Source: Tepidiformaceae bacterium
GTDB taxonomy: Bacteria > Chloroflexota > Dehalococcoidia > Tepidiformales > Tepidiformaceae
Assembly: GCA_035606745.1 (NCBI GenBank)
Contig: DATNET010000130.1
Coordinates: 1-29,215 of the forward strand
Direction of reading: 5' to 3'
DNA length: 29,215 nucleotides
The position numbers and the translations under genes are program-made. The notes below the pieces were generated by a model. It searched no databases. It was not told where the DNA came from and was given only the letters and a program-made list of their open reading frames with translations. Below, in pieces: positions 19,535 through 27,916 of the stretch (its first letter is position 1; the number at the start of each line of letters is the position of its first letter).

Positions 19535-20446
19535 TTACGAGTTCGACCCGTACACGTCGCGCGGATTCGTCCAGCCAGCGGAGAACCGCTCGATGGCCGA
19601 GTACGTGCAGGTGTAGTTGTCTTCGGTGTTGTGCTCGCGGAACATCGGCTTTTTGCGCCAAATGACGCGGATGCCGGCCTTGATGTCGGACACGAGCCAC
19701 CAGTTCGTGGTGCTCGTCAGGTACGGCGACGCTTCCTCGGCGACCTCGATACCCATGCCCTTGAGCACGTTGATCGCGTTGTTGTTCGTGTCGTTCTGCT
19801 TCTCCGACTTGAGGATGCGCATCGCCCGGTAGAGCAACTGAACGGGGACCACGATGCGCTTTGGCCGATATCCGTTGACGATGTAGCCGTTCGAGTCCGG
19901 GAGCTGCGCCATGTTCGCGCGGGCGGTCTCGATTGCCGTTTCCGACAGCGAGAGCGCGTTCGTGAACATGTTGGAGTACGTGCCGCCCTTCGGGAGAAGG
20001 TGGGCCGTGTTGCAGAGCGACAGCGCATCGGCGCCGACGAACGAAGACGAGAAGGAGTTGATGAAGATCGAATTGATCACATACTCCTGAGTGAGATTGA
20101 GCGAATTGCTCAGATTCTCCGTACCGTTGATCGCCTCGTCGTACTTGCAGTCATCGATCGCTTCCTCCGAAAGAGTGAACCGGAGGCCATAGGTGACGTG
20201 CGTGTACCGCTTGGCGAAGCCCTGCTGAATGGTGTCGAACTGGAGCATCGCGCCCTGCGCCTTCGCAGGCGCCGGCCCGAGGCCGGCGAACTCCTGATCG
20301 TCTTCGAAGGCGTCCGTTGAATTGGACACCTTGAAGCCCATGTCCTTCCAAAAGAGCTTCTTTTTCTGCTCTTGGCCCCACACCAAGTCGAGGGTCGGCT
20401 TGAGTGTGGACGGGATATTTGAGGTGGTGAGAATTGGCGTAGCCAT
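19535..20446 (-). CDS. Major capsid protein (Mu gpT-like HK97-fold family, 303 aa)
   Basis: FEDDQEFAGLGPAPAKAQGA..RYTHVTYGLRFTLSEEAIDD, LSETAIETA, PKRIVVP, NDTNNNAINVL, YLTSTTNWWL, ERFSAGWTNPR. Confidence 0.92.
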   Translation of the reverse strand: MATPILTTSNIPSTLKPTLDLVWGQEQKKKLFWKDMGFKVSNSTDAFEDDQEFAGLGPAPAKAQGAMLQFDTIQQGFAKRYTHVTYGLRFTLSEEAIDDCKYDEAINGTENLSNSLNLTQEYVINSIFINSFSSSFVGADALSLCNTAHLLPKGGTYSNMFTNALSLSETAIETARANMAQLPDSNGYIVNGYRPKRIVVPVQLLYRAMRILKSEKQNDTNNNAINVLKGMGIEVAEEASPYLTSTTNWWLVSDIKAGIRVIWRKKPMFREHNTEDNYTCTYSAIERFSAGWTNPRDVYGSNS

Positions 20447-21115: not shown

Positions 21116-21550
21116 TTATCGAGCCTCCTCAGACGCGGTGACGTTGAAACGGTTGCGGTAGCCGGGGTCCTTCGAATAGGACAGATATCGGGTGTCGTCC
21201 TGCGACGGGTCCTTGATCTTCGCCTGCGTCGCCTTGAGGACGCGGTTATGGCGTTCCTCGGCGGCGTGCTGGATCGCCTCGCCGCGCTCCTTGTCGATTT
21301 CCATCAACGTGAGCTGGTTGTTGACGCGGTAGCCGGGGCCGTGATCGGCGATGCCGTCGTACCACTTGGCCGGGCGGGGGCCATTGGCGCTGCGCTCGGT
21401 GCGCGCGTAGCCGCGCCCAAAGGCGGTCGGCATGTCCTCATCCGAGACGTACCAATACTTCTTGGACGGGTCGGCGTTGAGAACTTGGTCGTACTGCGGG
21501 TCAGAGAGGATGTTCGTGTCGGTCGGGTCGGGTCGCTTGCGCCGTGCCAT
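21116..21550 (-). CDS. Conserved capsid-operon hypothetical protein (144 aa)
   Basis: KKYWYVS..GRGY..LTLMEIDKE pattern typical of the gene between scaffold and cement; GGAGA 4 nt before the ATG at 21550. Confidence 0.7.
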   Translation of the reverse strand: MARRKRPDPTDTNILSDPQYDQVLNADPSKKYWYVSDEDMPTAFGRGYARTERSANGPRPAKWYDGIADHGPGYRVNNQLTLMEIDKERGEAIQHAAEERHNRVLKATQAKIKDPSQDDTRYLSYSKDPGYRNRFNVTASEEAR

Positions 21551-22035
21551 GGGATCTCCGAATGGCTTCGTTTCACCGTTCCTCGCGATGCCATTCGCGA
21601 GAGGCGTCAACGGACCACCGGACCCCGAACTACCGGGCGGCGCTGCTTACTTCGAAACCGTACCCGACCCGCAGTAAGATCGGAGGCTAGCTACCAGTAT
21701 GCACGAGCTACGTAATGACGCAAACGTTTTCTGTGGATGAGCGAACTACCCGCCAGTACGGCTGGCGGTCCCCGTGCGCTCCGTCGATTTCAGCGCTACG
21801 CCGCGCTGGAGTTCAGACCTGGGTGGCGACGGTTCCCCTTTGCGCCGAGATGGAGCGGCGCGAAGATTAGGTTCTATGTCGGCGCCCCGGCGTACGGGCA
21901 ACGCATGCGGGCGCCGACAACCCGGAGTCGTACAGCCCCGAAGGGCCGTTCCCCGGTGGGCTCGTCTCTCCCGCGTGGCTGGCCATGTCACAGCCCTTTG
22001 GACTCGCGGCCCGATCGAGACGCTCTCCCTCAATC
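21551..22035 (-). ncRNA. Candidate structured non-coding RNA / long regulatory leader (485 nt)
   Basis: No credible ORF in an otherwise gap-free operon; at least 8 stems found by eye, including an 11-bp perfect stem and a C(UUCG)G hairpin; no family assigned; strand not certain. Confidence 0.55.
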
Positions 22036-22959
22036 TTACCGACCGGCCTTGGCCTGGCGACGAGCTTCGGGAGCGCCGACCTCGCGCGCCCACTTCTTCT
22101 CGGCTTCCGCCGGATCGAGACCGGGGTACAACTTGTGGGCCATCGTCTTCTCGGCCTTGCCCATTCGAACGGTCACGGGACCTTCGCCGCCGCCTTCGCC
22201 TTCGCCGCCGCCGGGGGCCTGGTAAGCGGCACGGGAGCGCTCGGATGGGGGAGTATTGATCTTGAGGTTGAGATCGCGCTGAACCTCGGCTGCGACAACT
22301 CGGGCCATCTCATACGAGAACTGCTGACCGGAACGCATGCGGCGATCGACCTCTGCGTCGGTCGCGTCCAGAGCGCGCTTGTTCGTTGTGAGCCACGGAA
22401 ACTCGCGCTGGAGACTATCGCGGGCCTGGAGGAGCTGCGGAGTCATCGCCATCGGCTGCTGCCGCTGGAACTGCTGGAACCGCTGATCGATGTCGGGTTC
22501 CATCTCAGCGCGGAATTCCAGCTTGGCGATCTCGCGCTGCTTGGCGTTGTACGCGCGCATCTCGGCCTTGGCGCGTTCCTGGTCCTTCGCAGCGGCGGCC
22601 ATCCCGGCGTTCGCGAGATGACGATCGGCTTCGTCTTCCAGAGAGGCGATCTTGGTCTTGCGCGCGGCGGCGGGATCGTCCTGGTTGCGCTGGCCGAGAG
22701 CGGCGGCGTAACCACGGGTCTCGGCGAGATCGCGCTCGATGCGAGCAACCCGCTCCTCGGCGAGACGGGCACGCTCATCGGCTTGACGACGGGCCTCTTT
22801 CTCGTCGCGCAGGGTCGCCTGACGGCGATCTTTCCGGGACTGCTTCTGCTCCTCGGTCTCGGCCGGCTTGTCGGTCGGAGTTTCGACGTCATCCGGATCA
22901 ACCGTTACGCCCTCGGTCTTCTCTTCAACCTTCGGCTCGTCGTCATTCTCGGGAACCAT
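22036..22959 (-). CDS. Capsid scaffolding protein (307 aa)
   Basis: Acidic N-terminus, long coiled coil, FPWL motif and C-terminal KAEKTMAHKLYPG helix; position between portal module and capsid genes. Confidence 0.75.
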   Translation of the reverse strand: MVPENDDEPKVEEKTEGVTVDPDDVETPTDKPAETEEQKQSRKDRRQATLRDEKEARRQADERARLAEERVARIERDLAETRGYAAALGQRNQDDPAAARKTKIASLEDEADRHLANAGMAAAAKDQERAKAEMRAYNAKQREIAKLEFRAEMEPDIDQRFQQFQRQQPMAMTPQLLQARDSLQREFPWLTTNKRALDATDAEVDRRMRSGQQFSYEMARVVAAEVQRDLNLKINTPPSERSRAAYQAPGGGEGEGGGEGPVTVRMGKAEKTMAHKLYPGLDPAEAEKKWAREVGAPEARRQAKAGR

Positions 22960-23397
22960 TTACTTGCCTTTCTTCTTGGGGACGTAGAAGTGTTGCCCGG
23001 TAGGTTCGCCCTCTACCGCAAGCTCCTTGATGTCGTATCCCTTCAACCGTTCAAGGGCATCCACGGAGATTTGCACGTCTTCGACCTTCATCGCCGTGAT
23101 CTGCTCGGCCTTCTGCGCGGCCTCGCGCCGAACGGTGCGGTTGGTTCCGGCAAAGCGGCCGAACCAAATGACGTCGCCGATTTCGATCAGCGCCGCCTTG
23201 AGGATGTCGATCGCACCGAGGCCGGCAGCGAGCAACACGCCGATCTCCTGCTCGCCCTGATCGGTTTCGGGAATGTAGAGGCCGCCTGCCGTCCGTTCGA
23301 CCGGCGGAATGCGGAACACGAGGATTGTCTTACCCATCGGAAGACCCGGAATCGGCGGGATTCCGTACTGCTTCATTCGTTCGTCAAGCTTGCTCAT
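22960..23397 (-). CDS. groES: GroES/Cpn10-like co-chaperonin (145 aa)
   Basis: PMGKTILV..ERTAGGLYIPET..GVLLAAGLG..IEIGDVIWFGRFAG. Confidence 0.85.
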   Translation of the reverse strand: MSKLDERMKQYGIPPIPGLPMGKTILVFRIPPVERTAGGLYIPETDQGEQEIGVLLAAGLGAIDILKAALIEIGDVIWFGRFAGTNRTVRREAAQKAEQITAMKVEDVQISVDALERLKGYDIKELAVEGEPTGQHFYVPKKKGK

Positions 23398-23839: not shown

Positions 23840-26263
23840 TCATTGACCCTGATTCATGAACGGCGCGTTTACAGGCGCCCCCCCGCTGTTTGGAACGGTC
23901 ATTCCCGGCGGCTGCGGGTGCGGGTGCGGCATCGACTGTCCGTTACCCTGCGGCTGTTGCGGTGGTCTCGGAGGACCTCCTTGCGGGGCGCCGCGAACTG
24001 GCATTCCACCGGGGGCCGGCGCGACAGGGATCTGAGGCGGTGGCGGCTGAACGAGCGCCACAAGATCCGGCCGGTCCATCGCCGTGAACAGCGCGCGGAG
24101 CAAGACCATCCAGAGTTGCGGGTTCTGTGCGATCCATGGCGCAACCGCTGCCGCGTTCTGAGTCACCTGGATCGCCTGCATCGCCTCTTGGAACCGCTGC
24201 GGCTGACTAGCCATTCGCGGGTCTGCGGTCACGGTGATCGCGACGTCCTCCAGGTAGTCTTGGCGCGCGATACTGTGGTCTTCGACCATGCCGACCGACG
24301 GGTGATAGGCTTGGTTGTCCTTGAGCCCGCTGTACGTGCCGTCTTCTGCTTGCGGAGGCGCCTGGTGGTACGGATCAATAACGCTGAAATACTCCACGTC
24401 GCCAAGATACACGCTGTTCAGTCGGGCAAATTTCTCCCCCTCGGACGTGCGCGATCGGCCATAACGCTTGCCCTGAATACTGACTGCTGCAAGCGCCTGA
24501 CTGATGCGAATCTGCGTCGTCGTCGCCGTTTCGTTCGAGCCTCCCACTTCGCCCGAGAGAATGTCAGACGCGCCTGACAGTTCCTCGGCCTCTTCCTTTT
24601 GGTCCTTGATGACTTCGCCAAGGGTCGGCTCCGGCTTGGGGAATTGGAGGAACTTGATCGCGCCGTCGATCTCGCCGGGCAAAAGTTCCGTCTTCATGAT
24701 CTCACCCGGCTTGATGCGCCATTCGCCAGCGCCAAGCTTCGCCTCGCGAGACGCGATGCCGGTCTGTGTGTTCGCGCGAACGGCCGAGTCAACCAGCGCA
24801 GATCCAAGCGAGTCGGCCGCGAGGTTGTTGCCTTCCAATAGGTAGCCGATACCGAAACCATAGATCCCCTCGGGATTCGGAATGCAGATGAAGTGCGTGA
24901 AGAAGTGGATCGGAACGAGCGTCGGCTCTTTCGGAAGCGGCTTTTTCTTCGGTGCAACCGGGGGCGTCATTGGCTGCGGTGCAACCGGCATCGTAGGTGT
25001 CATGGCGCCAGGCATCGGAGGCGCGGTCATGCTCATTGCGGGCGGCGGACCCATTGCTGGCGTCGGCATGCCCATCTGAGGCGGCGGCATGGCGCCCGGT
25101 CGAATTCCACCGAGGATGCTAATCGCGTTGGCCTGGTACGCCTGCAAGTCCTGCTCGTACTGCTGCATCGCCATTTCGTACGCGGCGTCGTCTGCCTGCT
25201 TCTCGCGGTTGTAGCGCGCGCGGTCCTCGGGATCTTCGTCGGCCCGGACCACGAAACCGATCAGCGTCTTTGTCGCGCGGTCGATGGTCGCGATAACCGG
25301 CCGTTCCTCAGGCCACTCGTCCAGCTTCCACCAGCGATGTTGTTCAAGCAGTTCGCGGCGAGCTGGGGTTTCCTTCTCGGGCTTCTTGACGCCGCTGGCA
25401 CGGTCGATAACCTCGCGGACGGGATCGCTGACCTCGCTCCCGCTCGTCATGTTCCCTGCGGTCGCGTCGTCTTTGTCTTCGTCGTCGTCGCCGAAAAGCT
25501 CCTCGACGTTCATCTTGCTGTAGTAACCCGAGCGCGCCCAAGCGTCGAGGCCATCCGCGCCATAACGGTACTTGCGGACGATGCGCGTAATGCGCGGCAA
25601 CCCTGACATACTCGGCTCGTTCGCGAACTGCGGGTAGGCGTACGGGAGCACGATGTCTTCCGTGGGGCAGATTTCGTGGCATGGACGGTTCTTGACTGGG
25701 TTCCAGTAGATGAAAGTGAACGCAGAGCCGTATAGATACCACTGCATGATCAGCGCGTCGTGGTTCGGCACGTACTCGGGAATTTGGTGCAAAACCTGCC
25801 AATTCAGGTGCTTCGCGACGCGGACGCAGCGCGGAAGATCGGCGGCCGAAGTCGGGCGAATGCCGAAAAACTCGCCGTTCGACGGGAATTGCTGGTCGTA
25901 GACACGGGCCGCGAGCTTGACGACGGCCTTCATGATGATCGAATAGTGAATCTGGCTGTAGCCGTCCTCTTTCGGCGGCAACTCGCCAAGTGCCAGCTTC
26001 AAGATCTCTGCGCGTCGCTGGCGAAATTTCGTGGAACCACTCCAGTCGGTTTCGAAATCCTCAAAAACCGCATCGGCGATTTCTTGCTGCTCATCTTCCT
26101 TGATCGAGTCGACAAGATTGGCCGTTTCGGGCGCAACTCCCTTGAGCGCGTCTTCCGTTCCGCCGACCGTGATCGTGTCGACCGGCCTGTCTTCGACGTT
26201 TGTAGAATCGGCACTGTCGGTGTCGAGTTCGGAAGAATTGGTGTCTTCAGGGGTCGTGCTCAT
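23840..26263 (-). CDS. Portal protein (807 aa)
   Basis: Follows terminase; QIPEY, WYLYGSAFTFIYWNP, ELLEQH, FTHFICIPNPEGIYGFG, TTATTT-like ETATTT and VTADP motifs. Confidence 0.9.
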   Translation of the reverse strand: MSTTPEDTNSSELDTDSADSTNVEDRPVDTITVGGTEDALKGVAPETANLVDSIKEDEQQEIADAVFEDFETDWSGSTKFRQRRAEILKLALGELPPKEDGYSQIHYSIIMKAVVKLAARVYDQQFPSNGEFFGIRPTSAADLPRCVRVAKHLNWQVLHQIPEYVPNHDALIMQWYLYGSAFTFIYWNPVKNRPCHEICPTEDIVLPYAYPQFANEPSMSGLPRITRIVRKYRYGADGLDAWARSGYYSKMNVEELFGDDDEDKDDATAGNMTSGSEVSDPVREVIDRASGVKKPEKETPARRELLEQHRWWKLDEWPEERPVIATIDRATKTLIGFVVRADEDPEDRARYNREKQADDAAYEMAMQQYEQDLQAYQANAISILGGIRPGAMPPPQMGMPTPAMGPPPAMSMTAPPMPGAMTPTMPVAPQPMTPPVAPKKKPLPKEPTLVPIHFFTHFICIPNPEGIYGFGIGYLLEGNNLAADSLGSALVDSAVRANTQTGIASREAKLGAGEWRIKPGEIMKTELLPGEIDGAIKFLQFPKPEPTLGEVIKDQKEEAEELSGASDILSGEVGGSNETATTTQIRISQALAAVSIQGKRYGRSRTSEGEKFARLNSVYLGDVEYFSVIDPYHQAPPQAEDGTYSGLKDNQAYHPSVGMVEDHSIARQDYLEDVAITVTADPRMASQPQRFQEAMQAIQVTQNAAAVAPWIAQNPQLWMVLLRALFTAMDRPDLVALVQPPPPQIPVAPAPGGMPVRGAPQGGPPRPPQQPQGNGQSMPHPHPQPPGMTVPNSGGAPVNAPFMNQGQ

Positions 26264-26272
26264 TCGCGGCTC

Positions 26273-27916
26273 CTACCAAAGTCCAGGGTACGATGTACGG
26301 CTCTTTCGTGTCGATTTCGGCTTATCCCACTTTTCCCAGTCGTCGTCGGCCGTTTTGCTCCGATCGGGCGTGAGCGGTCTGCTCATCGCAGCGTAACACA
26401 TAGCACTATAAGCGGTTGCCGGCGCCTTCGGATCGGGACAGTCCTTGTCGTTCTTGTCGGCCGGCATGGACGGGATCTCTTCGATCGAGTGCTTGCAGTC
26501 ATCGAAGAAGCGCAGCCCCGGAACGCCGGGGGATTTTTTCAGAGTGCCGTCAAGCGTGCGTGACAGCAGCCGGTCGCGAATTTGGTCTGCCGCAGCTCCC
26601 AGGTTGTCGTCCGCTCGCGTCCACCGGATCCCGACTCGTCGCATGGTCTCTGCCGGCGAAGGGCCGCGTTGTTTCGTCCGCTCCCAGGCCGTCACCGGCC
26701 CCAGCACGCCGATCAGCTTCGATCCGTCGTCCGGGTCAACCGACCACTCGCGCGGTTCCTTAGCGTACTCCTCGATCTCCCGGATGCGCTCCGCGACCAT
26801 CTTGGCCGTGTGGTCCTTTAGGTGCAACTCCCGATAGCCCGTCAGGTTCCCGTCGTAGTCGACCGCAAACCACTGCACCGTCGTCTCGGCGTACGTGAAG
26901 TGACACGAGCGGAACAGGTGCCGCGTCGAAGGAATCGTGAACGACCGGACGACATGCACGCCTTCGTCCCAGCACAGTCCGACAAGATCCCCGAGTGCGG
27001 AGCCGAAGTCGCCGTCTCGCATCGCGCGGACAAGTCCGGCTGGCTTCCCGTCGAACGAGGCGAGGTATGCGGCCTGGTCGACGCTCTTGTTGTCCGAAAC
27101 CTTCGCGTAGACGTACATTCGCGAGCGCTCGACTACTTGCTTGCGCTTGCTCCCGTCAGCGTCCTCGACCTCAACCTCGACCTTCTTAGTGATTTCCTTG
27201 CCTGAGCCGAAGTCGACGAAGAACTTTTTCACCCACGCGCGACCGACGCCGATCGGGTTTCCGCCGGCCCGCTGAATCGGCGTCAGGAACGACCCGGCCG
27301 GCTGGCGTACCCACTGGTCCATCATATCCCATTGCGACAACAGGAACGACGGCAACTCGTCCCACAGGAGGCAGGTGATCTGCCACCCCTGGTACTTATC
27401 CCAGTCCTCGTCGTTCTCCATGTGTCCGAACGTCATGCGATAGCCGTTCGGATGCACATACGTCTTGTCCATCGCCTTCCAGGTGACGTCGGGGCAAGCG
27501 AGTTTGTAGTCACGCGCGCAGCGGTTCATAACCTCGCGCAAGCGAGGCGTCTCACGTAGCAGGTAAAGCGCCTGCCCGAACGATTCGGTTATCTCGCCGC
27601 TTTTGATTCGCTTATTGTCTTCCTCGATCTGCTGCCACGGATACCAGCGAAGAATGTCCGTCTTCCCGGTGTACGTGCCGCCTCCGATAAACCCGTAACG
27701 GCCTTCGTACTCCCAGATCTTGTCCTGCGGTCCCGCCCACGTCCCGAAAATCGGCTTCCCGTTGGCGGCGAAAATGCGGTTCGTATAGCCAGGAACGACC
27801 GGCCATTCCTGTTTCTTCGGCGCGAACGACGTCTGGTCAATGGACCGCGATATATGCATCGGGTCCATCCCCGGCGCCTCGGGCTCAAGCGGAACGGGTT
27901 TGCGCTTAACTGGCAC
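26273..27916 (-). CDS. terL: Terminase large subunit (547 aa)
   Basis: Walker A GGGTYTGKT, Walker B LLWDELP, motif III GGNPIGVG..WVK, C-terminal nuclease region (AVDYDGNL, RFFDDC..IEEIP). Confidence 0.92.
   Translation of the reverse strand: MPVKRKPVPLEPEAPGMDPMHISRSIDQTSFAPKKQEWPVVPGYTNRIFAANGKPIFGTWAGPQDKIWEYEGRYGFIGGGTYTGKTDILRWYPWQQIEEDNKRIKSGEITESFGQALYLLRETPRLREVMNRCARDYKLACPDVTWKAMDKTYVHPNGYRMTFGHMENDEDWDKYQGWQITCLLWDELPSFLLSQWDMMDQWVRQPAGSFLTPIQRAGGNPIGVGRAWVKKFFVDFGSGKEITKKVEVEVEDADGSKRKQVVERSRMYVYAKVSDNKSVDQAAYLASFDGKPAGLVRAMRDGDFGSALGDLVGLCWDEGVHVVRSFTIPSTRHLFRSCHFTYAETTVQWFAVDYDGNLTGYRELHLKDHTAKMVAERIREIEEYAKEPREWSVDPDDGSKLIGVLGPVTAWERTKQRGPSPAETMRRVGIRWTRADDNLGAAADQIRDRLLSRTLDGTLKKSPGVPGLRFFDDCKHSIEEIPSMPADKNDKDCPDPKAPATAYSAMCYAAMSRPLTPDRSKTADDDWEKWDKPKSTRKSRTSYPGLW

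Follow-up and report, generated by a model that had tools for sequence, protein, structure and literature searches.

A mosaic of minus-strand RNA elements in a 485-nt gap between phage head genes

The locus described here raises the question of what occupies 485 nucleotides (nt) of DNA that lie in the middle of a compact block of phage head genes and carry no evident gene. The stretch analysed (the window) is contig DATNET010000130.1 from a Tepidiformaceae bacterium, that is, the whole of a 29-kilobase (kb) contig (C409; 29,215 nt) of a fragmented metagenome-assembled genome (MAG). All long genes of the window are carried by the minus strand, and together they form a phage structural module. 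The gap (21551-22035) separates the end of a scaffold-like gene at 22036 from the next start codon, the ATG at 21550, which opens a gene for a protein of 144 amino acids (aa). Since the remaining operon junctions overlap or measure at most 55 nt, the gap can be regarded as real. An initial annotation of this DNA had remarked on an unusually long interval without a credible open reading frame (ORF), and a survey of the junctions together with a check of the ORFs bore this out. The same annotation had proposed a new structured RNA, or a cis-regulatory leader of the capsid genes. Covariation speaks for both of these ideas, and neither structure has an Rfam match; the accompanying picture of a single RNA within an uninterrupted operon did not survive. 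The gap is a mosaic of separate minus-strand RNA elements and not one RNA, and it is probably best understood as a transcription-unit boundary built of independent minus-strand RNA modules. Two covariation-supported RNA structures without a counterpart in Rfam 15, a leader of the capsid genes and a small hairpin motif, come from this one gap.

Modular architecture of the gap

About 20 homologues of the downstream 144-aa protein were found, and 17 loci were retrieved. From the stop codon of the scaffold gene to the start of the next gene, the distance in these relatives is 187, 192, 250, 265, 268, 316, 337, 344, 391, 476 or 485 nt. The scaffold gene of every relative stops at the same place, its C-terminus (ARRQAKAGR and the stop) having the same position in all of them, and the variable inserts begin right after the stop codon. 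Comparison by blastn and MAFFT indicates that the proximal ~150-175 nt alone are common to all relatives and that the other blocks are patchily shared; positions 21744-21811, for example, are shared with the relative L017 at 94% identity. Across the scaffold gene and the gap, ~100% identity links the window with the relative L007, and identity drops to 60-95% from the start of the 144-aa gene (21551 boundary; L007:1347). Because the identity breaks so sharply there, a recombination boundary is placed at the junction of leader and gene.

When the folding energy of the whole gap was compared with shuffled sequences, z was a marginal -2.21 on the plus strand and an unremarkable -0.80 on the minus strand, which is the sense strand. 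Judged by thermodynamics only, the finding would not have stood. Since the sense-strand z-scores are not significant, covariation was chosen as the basis of the case. Most of the stems that had been picked out by eye proved to be real and conserved; the claim that hairpins are denser than expected by chance found no backing in folding energy. These data also bear on the idea that all 485 nt constitute one large structured non-coding RNA (ncRNA). Hairpins are dense throughout and the plus-strand score is in its favor; however, the relatives retain sub-blocks only, a conserved putative promoter and a terminator-like hairpin lie inside the gap, the modules occur independently in other genomes, and the score of the sense strand is the weak one. 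A single ncRNA is accordingly considered highly improbable.

Nor does a protein gene appear to be hidden here. ORFs of 39-162 aa can be drawn in the gap on either strand, and the sole long minus-strand frame (21746-22093, 115 aa) is Arg-rich and out of frame with the scaffold gene. This frame is impossible in relatives without the insert and is disrupted by indels of 1-3 nt in L010. The other ORFs were likewise rejected as Arg-rich noise of high-GC DNA, none of them surviving the large and 1-3-nt indels of the relatives, and in nearly all leaders two or more of the three frames are interrupted by stop codons. The check for a coding frame conserved in relatives thus found none, and of all the explanations weighed here a small protein gene was given the least credence, its probability being close to negligible.

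Searches against known families were negative as well. Rfam 15 gave no match at gathering score in the whole window and none at E <= 10 in 21400-22200 on both strands, so the gap belongs to no listed family, be it a riboswitch (ykkC-III and ZTP among them), a ribozyme, a group I or II intron, GOLLD, ROOL or phi29 packaging RNA. ARAGORN detected no transfer RNA (tRNA) or transfer-messenger RNA (tmRNA) within the window, and the DNA of the gap has no similarity to GenBank phages or to 40 related genomes.

The capsid leader, its putative promoter and the terminator-like hairpin

The proximal block of the gap is a 139-nt leader located 5' of the capsid gene block and composed of two hairpins (P1 and P4), an optional module (P3) and a pseudoknot (PK1), with the Shine-Dalgarno sequence at its end. 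It was studied in a set of 13-14 distinct homologues. P1 and P4 were found by RNAalifold on a plain MAFFT alignment. After P3 had been added and the sequences had been re-aligned to a covariance model (alignment A6), 96.9% of 319 cells were paired, compared with 37-41% in slid controls, and changes on both sides were observed in 13 of 26 pairs; these values were reached by none of 500 shuffles. The unfitted, MAFFT-only alignment (A5) gave the same result for P1 and P4. Compensatory changes affect 4 of the 5 pairs of P1, and 5 of the 7 pairs of the stem 21582-21588/21595-21601, which had been recognized by eye and corresponds to P4. The outer stem drawn around it (21576-21580/21609-21613) fared worse, as it rivals a conserved CGCC/GGUG pairing and is missing in the leaders without P3. 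P3 itself is missing in four relatives, and its layout of CGCC, hairpin, 3-nt bulge and GGUG mirrors that of P4.

The loop of P1 pairs with a segment 15-20 nt downstream. Because MAFFT left the loop columns of PK1 unaligned, this pairing was counted for each sequence by a script. The versions CCUGC/GCAGG, GCUAG/CUAGC, GCUAC/GUAGC and UCUGC/GCAGA were found, with CUGC/GCAG in the window; compensatory variants occur at 3 of 5 positions, and pairing of a sequence with its own partner scores 4.92 versus 3.79 for cross pairing. These compensatory variants indicate a 5'-terminal H-type pseudoknot. With regard to the strand, the signals had seemed to conflict when judged by eye. For the leader, the question is settled by the paired cells, which include 51 G:U and no A:C combinations, so the structure belongs to the minus strand. 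The leader model (R1) finds exactly one copy per phage, always at this position; neither the remainder of the MAG nor 123 genomes from the host family contain a further copy, and a degenerate leader pattern had no match in IMG/VR.

Directly upstream of the leader, a putative sigma70-type promoter is conserved in position. When sequences were anchored gap-free on the TAGCC that is conserved at the leader start, 13 of 13 distinct relatives displayed TTGAC or TTGC, a variable spacer of 17 nt (16 in the window), yAnnnT and then 6 nt to TAGCC. Transcription would then start near 21689. Further upstream lies the terminator-like hairpin, which in 7 relatives is 95.9% paired (slid controls, 23-51%) and has both-side changes in 5 of 7 pairs, so that the stem 21750-21756/21762-21768 of the initial annotation is real. 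Its GC-rich stem of 7 base pairs (bp) corresponds to the hairpin part of an intrinsic terminator. The tail after the stem, GUAGUUUU(U), is a U-tract in L017, L014 and L021, and hairpins with T-runs abut the -35 box in L017, L014, L018, L019 and L021; a terminator scanner lists no minus-strand terminator at the hairpin of the window. From this arrangement we infer that the hairpin terminates or pauses transcription and that the promoter starts it anew, and the apparent head operon would be split by this pair.

The leader probably controls the expression of the capsid block in cis. Sequestration of the Shine-Dalgarno sequence is one hypothetical way, suggested by modelling. The predictions consistently join UCCGGUGG and the Shine-Dalgarno region in a long-range helix, for which L003 supplies one compensatory variant, and in 8 of 9 leaders with P3 the predicted partner is the UCC of GUCCGGUGG. 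A pairing of the start codon was rejected, the AUGGC start context not being conserved and most relatives beginning with AUGCC.

Among known systems, the leader most resembles phage translational operators and leaders of capsid genes, or possibly the put element of phage HK022, as far as analogy can tell. The mRNA leader of T4 gene 32, a highly expressed gene, contains a 5' pseudoknot that serves as a translational operator, and an unstructured A/U-rich tract. Both leaders have a 5' H-type pseudoknot and end at the ribosome binding site, and a pseudoknot of the T4 gene 32 kind would fit translational control in cis. However, there is no sequence relation, P3 and P4 take the place of the A/U-rich tract, the fold encoded by the first gene here is uncharacterised, and no autoregulatory protein is known. 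In T7, the phi10 promoter and the gene 10 leader, a simple 5' stem-loop, boost capsid expression by the phage's own RNA polymerase. A dedicated promoter and a structured leader before a capsid gene, amid late genes, are common to both systems; the promoter described here looks host-type, unlike that of T7, and the leader is a covarying, multi-helix, pseudoknotted RNA.

The put element of HK022 consists of two stem-loops in ~70 nt, contains no pseudoknot, lies apart from the ribosome binding site and causes processive antitermination. Like the leader, it is a structured RNA immediately downstream of a phage promoter and before a long operon; its description sets it apart from the present leader, which has a pseudoknot and is joined to a ribosome binding site. 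The leader might nevertheless be a put-like cis antiterminator, whose nascent stem-loops would bind RNA polymerase and let it read through terminators, and not a control of translation or stability. It would stand at the putative start, directly behind a conserved promoter, at the head of a ~20-kb structural block on one strand, and the sequestration of the Shine-Dalgarno sequence is statistically weak. On the other hand, the leader extends as far as the Shine-Dalgarno sequence, and conservation embraces both its 3' part (GGUGAAAC..GCC..GGAG) and the ribosome binding site. Moreover, Rfam contains no known element that matches it by sequence or family, and only one copy is present. Antitermination is consequently viewed as unlikely, and cis control of translation or stability is the reading followed below.

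Several variations of this region were observed in relatives. In L002 (L002:3779-3808), the scaffold ORF runs through the hairpin to the conserved GGUAG, adding 3 residues, and the hairpin overlaps coding sequence. The promoter spacers of four to five relatives contain a perfect inverted repeat, TGGCAC-N5-GTGCCA, which also resembles a sigma54 -24/-12 element (GG-N10-GC) and might serve as an operator or as a second type of promoter; the spacers of the window, L002 and L022 differ from it. L021:108-225 and L019:676-790 share a different module of ~110 nt, with its own strong hairpin and T-run just before the -35 box. In L021 this module sits after the first terminator-like hairpin; the hotspot may thus harbor a small RNA unit of its own in these two relatives.

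The hairpin motif and the distal insert

The second structure is a hairpin motif of two helices, P1 and P2, in which a 31-nt core recurs far beyond the relatives of this phage. Stems 21977-21981/21991-21995 and 21971-21975/22005-22009, which had been noted by eye as parts of a nested arm, are P2 and P1 of this motif. Among 45 distinct copies, P2 is 100% paired with 5 of 5 pairs covarying, and it occurs in 8 helix versions, each fully paired (5/5). The P1 pairs adjoining the core are paired in 44 of 45 and 41 of 45 copies, with every pair type used, and the flanks of the copies are otherwise unrelated. G:U exceeds A:C by 28 to 17. At the copy in the window, the motif model (R2) scores 62 bits.

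A 25-nt block of the distal insert has exact matches in 30 unrelated IMG/VR contigs, in a MAG of Cellvibrionaceae and in a prophage of Pandoraea iniqua LMG 31009 (motif at L055:4648-4678). When the 5+5 stem positions were allowed to vary, the matching IMG/VR contigs numbered at least 53. The motif is single-copy per contig, and the same 31-nt core is found in phages with a flanking GC content of between 46% and 71%. No second copy of the motif exists elsewhere in the MAG, and the motif model has no match in 150 genomes of the host phylum; the core is likewise absent from GenBank phages, E. coli genomes and plasmids. Rfam, when applied to 15 other loci bearing the motif, matched only tRNAs, and a literature search for the core sequence returned no paper.

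Two settings recur. The first is formed by tRNA genes: the motif lies in or beside tRNA arrays, on the tRNA strand, in 10 loci, and in five sequence contexts it forms the tip of a tRNA-like anticodon arm. These motif-capped genes have normal acceptor, D and T arms and an anticodon arm extended into a long helix. In intron mode, ARAGORN places a 55-nt insert at position 37 of a tRNA-Tyr in L054 and an insert at position 32 of an odd tRNA in L037; most copies of the motif lie outside tRNAs. The motif-capped genes may be either intron-bearing tRNAs or natural tRNA scaffolds, and neither the gap nor the 15 other motif loci matched an intron model. That the motif is grafted onto tRNAs and located in tRNA arrays points to selection for an RNA product that is processed and stable.

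The second setting is that of head and packaging genes. In 10 of 20 other loci, the longest downstream ORF on the same strand encodes the portal or the large terminase subunit, sometimes 27-270 nt away, and in a further group the motif is situated just upstream of the small terminase subunit. This link hints at when, and with what, the motif would act. The copy in the Pandoraea prophage lies behind a strong terminator and ahead of a run of genes leading to a 459-aa ORF. The motif is probably a stable small RNA module, and its pattern of sense strand, single copy and portal/terminase or tRNA context is the one expected if a functional and stable RNA is made.

Among known RNAs, GOLLD and ROOL (RF01998, RF03087) occupy the nearest niche. 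They are ncRNAs of phages and prophages, often encoded close to tRNA islands, whose structures have covariation support and to which no function is ascribed (bioRxiv 10.1101/2024.12.08.627333). The tRNA-island niche is common to these RNAs and to the motif. However, GOLLD and ROOL are multi-domain nanocage RNAs of 580-800 nt or more, and the motif is ten times smaller, measuring ~50 nt (P1 and the 31-nt core), has no Rfam match, belongs to neither family and is associated with portal and terminase genes as well as with tRNA-like scaffolds. It would represent a GOLLD/ROOL-like case of a size that is easily synthesised and tested, and since Pandoraea iniqua LMG 31009 is a cultured strain with the motif in a prophage, a direct test is possible. 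About 10,000 covariation-supported candidate RNAs from IMG/VR, some of them tRNA-like or upstream of capsid genes, were catalogued by Fremin et al. (2023; PMC10690425). The main text of that article describes no entry with the motif core; the leader or the motif could already be listed in the catalogue itself.

In the window, the motif belongs to a distal insert of ~260 nt (~21777-22035) that begins right after the scaffold stop codon. The insert is lineage-specific, being found only in the window, in L007 and, partly, in L010 and L012. It contains further predicted hairpins (H0 and H2 to H5) and a filler. In H3, whose stem 21877-21887/21909-21919 had been proposed by eye, two pairs are doubly changed in comparison with L010 (U:A to C:G and G:C to U:A) and 11 of 11 pairs are kept. 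At the place of the UUCG hairpin that had also been proposed, inside H2, L010 has a different inner hairpin (UGCCCC-ACC-GGGGCA) and keeps the outer stem. The weak hairpin H0 has one pair broken by a substitution in L010. The stem at 21839-21864 was not confirmed, there being no comparator sequences for it.

The distal ~260 nt could also be considered a recombination scar or a hitch-hiking insertion whose hairpins are passengers, only the leader being of importance. Presence and absence are polymorphic (L002 and L003 have none of the insert, and other, unrelated sequences are inserted in L008, L013 and L014), the insert is flanked by a degenerate second copy of the 3' end of the scaffold gene, and the ~100% identity of the window and L007 up to the leader, followed by divergence, marks a recombination hotspot. 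Against this stand the compensatory changes of H2 and H3, the identity of the distal module between the window and L010, which at 82% lies above the 77% of the flanking genes, and the covariation of the motif in dozens of unrelated phages with consistent strand and context. A mere scar is thus rated as doubtful, with a minor share of the probability, and the insert is more readily seen as one of the RNA modules of the boundary. An intron at the scaffold 3' end was considered and rejected, as all relatives have the same stop codon, the sequence does not follow the rules for splice sites and a match to an intron model is lacking.

It is also conceivable that the elements act as DNA, in the form of single-strand hairpins or of protein-binding palindromes for packaging, recombination or replication. 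The position of the motif near terminase and portal genes and the perfect palindrome in the promoter spacers of some relatives would agree with such a role. Yet the stems drift freely and stay complementary, as RNA helices do and unlike protein-bound half-sites; G:U prevails over A:C in the leader as well as in the motif; and the motif is oriented like the tRNAs and embedded in tRNA-like genes. A role as DNA is very unlikely, and the elements are treated as RNA in what follows.

Two further arrangements of the motif were noted. In one IMG/VR phage (L063:3849-4928), it has an array of six tRNAs on one side and a tmRNA gene of the phage on the other. In L024, L027, L050, L056 and L062, all of which have it upstream of small terminase genes of the Sf6 type, it is one of the arms of a conserved and larger three-way junction with the flanks CAACACG...CGUGUUG and GGAUCUUC...GGAAGAUCC and a side hairpin; the RNA of this lineage may accordingly be a bigger one.

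Putative functions and gene setting

According to the preferred reading, a boundary between transcription units, the gap would work in four steps. The scaffold gene would be followed by the ~260-nt insert in the 3' untranslated region (UTR), with one copy of the motif as its functional heart; the motif would be made as a stable small RNA module whose fixed three-dimensional fold acts on a conserved partner. The conserved hairpin would then end or pause upstream transcription, and the sigma70-type promoter would restart it. The new transcript would open with the 139-nt leader (the P1/PK1 pseudoknot, optional P3, and P4) and would thereby set the translation and/or stability, in cis, of the mRNA that encodes the 144-aa protein, the 218-aa protein and the major capsid protein. 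As a candidate switch, UCCGGUGG may pair either with the Shine-Dalgarno region or with CGCCG, that is, with the outer helix of P3.

A number of observations weigh against this reading. Significant folding excess over shuffled sequences is lacking on the sense strand of the gap, and the distal 224 nt (z = -0.98 on the sense and -1.19 on the plus strand) show none either; relatives without the distal insert evidently manage without it. In the window, the tail after the stem of the terminator-like hairpin (GUAGUUCGCUC) is a poor U-tract. The promoter of the window scores 8/12 against the consensus, which is below the threshold of the scanner, so its assignment rests on positional conservation, and the -10 hexamers mostly begin with C. 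The pairing probability of the Shine-Dalgarno sequence is not above that of shuffled controls, and a second pseudoknot, PK2, between UGGC of the P4 loop and GCCA before the Shine-Dalgarno sequence, was rejected because GGC/GCC, although invariant, gives no own-versus-cross signal. For the motif, the search patterns themselves account for part of the loop invariance, although six positions on which they set no constraint did not vary in the first scan either. Clustering of the proteins encoded around the motif produced no shared or constant neighbouring family.

The boldest interpretation is that the hairpin with the invariant loop (GAGUCCAAAG/UGACAUGGC) represents a new functional class of phage RNA, either a trans-acting small RNA for head assembly or DNA packaging, as a partner of portal or terminase, or a small self-processing or protein-decoy RNA, and that the leader represents a new class of capsid riboregulator. 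The packaging RNA (pRNA) of phi29 (RF00044) is a small phage RNA of 120-174 nt tied to the portal and the packaging motor, with complementary loops for ring formation. The position of the motif beside portal and terminase genes makes pRNA the nearest functional analogy; the motif differs in having no Rfam match and no evident pair of complementary loops. This interpretation is speculative and is given only about one part of belief in five. If it were true, diverse uncultivated phages would express the motif from tRNA arrays, tRNA scaffolds and head-gene UTRs for the sake of a stable product. The motif is the more general result and the more valuable lead, and the leader is a lineage-specific cis element. 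The leader nevertheless offers a concrete and mutable model for the way in which the output of the most abundant structural proteins may be set.

The positions of all features are collected in Table 1. The 144-aa protein, whose gene directly follows the leader, could be assigned to neither a Pfam nor a PHROG family and matched no fold in the PDB, and its fold resembles only uncharacterised proteins of Caudovirales; for lack of such a family or fold match, the idea of an RNA-binding autoregulator is unsupported.

Table 1. Features of the window and related elements of other loci (positions without a locus name refer to the window; MFE, minimum free energy)
Feature	Position	Strand	Remarks
Large terminase subunit	26273-27916	-	
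Portal	23840-26263	-	
GroES/Cpn10-like gene	22960-23397	-	Pfam PF00166, E = 3e-8
Scaffold-like gene	22036-22959	-	307 aa, coiled-coil, charged; from ORF listing and translation
H0	22013-22035	-	predicted 8-bp hairpin after stop codon; MFE only, weak
Hairpin motif	21958-22012	-	P1, GAGUCCAAAG, P2, loop UGACAUGGC, P2', AC, P1'
Motif P1	22006-22012 with 21971-21974 (plus 21958-21960)	-	variable sequence
Motif invariant core	21975-22005	-	31 nt; P2 21991-21995/21977-21981
H2	21922-21956	-	nested hairpin, predicted; outer CCGGGG/CUCCGG, inner stem with UUCG loop
H3	21877-21919	-	predicted; 11-bp stem and small inner hairpin
Filler	21777-21876	-	window and L007 only, absent in L010
H4	21839-21864	-	without comparators
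H5	21786-21813	-	core CAGCGC/GCGCUG, AAGCGC/GCGCUU in L017
Terminator-like hairpin	21740-21776	-	stem 21762-21768/21750-21756, loop CCGUA, conserved flanks GGGGAC and GGUAG
Sigma70-type promoter (putative)	21696-21723	-	-35 TTGCGT 21718-21723, 16-nt spacer, -10 CATACT 21696-21701
Leader	21551-21689	-	139 nt, 5' of capsid gene block
Leader P1	21679-21683/21664-21668	-	
Leader PK1	21671-21674/21643-21646	-	
Leader P3	21616-21642	-	optional module
Leader P4	21574-21606	-	conserved UUGGCA-type loop
Leader Shine-Dalgarno	21556-21559	-	GGAG
144-aa gene	21116-21550	-	first after leader; ATG at 21550
218-aa gene		-	between 144-aa gene and major capsid gene
Major capsid gene	19535-20446	-	
Spacer inverted repeat	L003:3820-3850, L008:2830-2862, L010:745-775, L017:78-108		
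tRNA-like genes with motif	L037:4480-4640 (also L045, L053), L041:440-570, L054:2640-2790, L051, L035		

Within the head module, the GroES/Cpn10-like gene is placed directly upstream of the scaffold-like gene, and it is conserved in the relatives.

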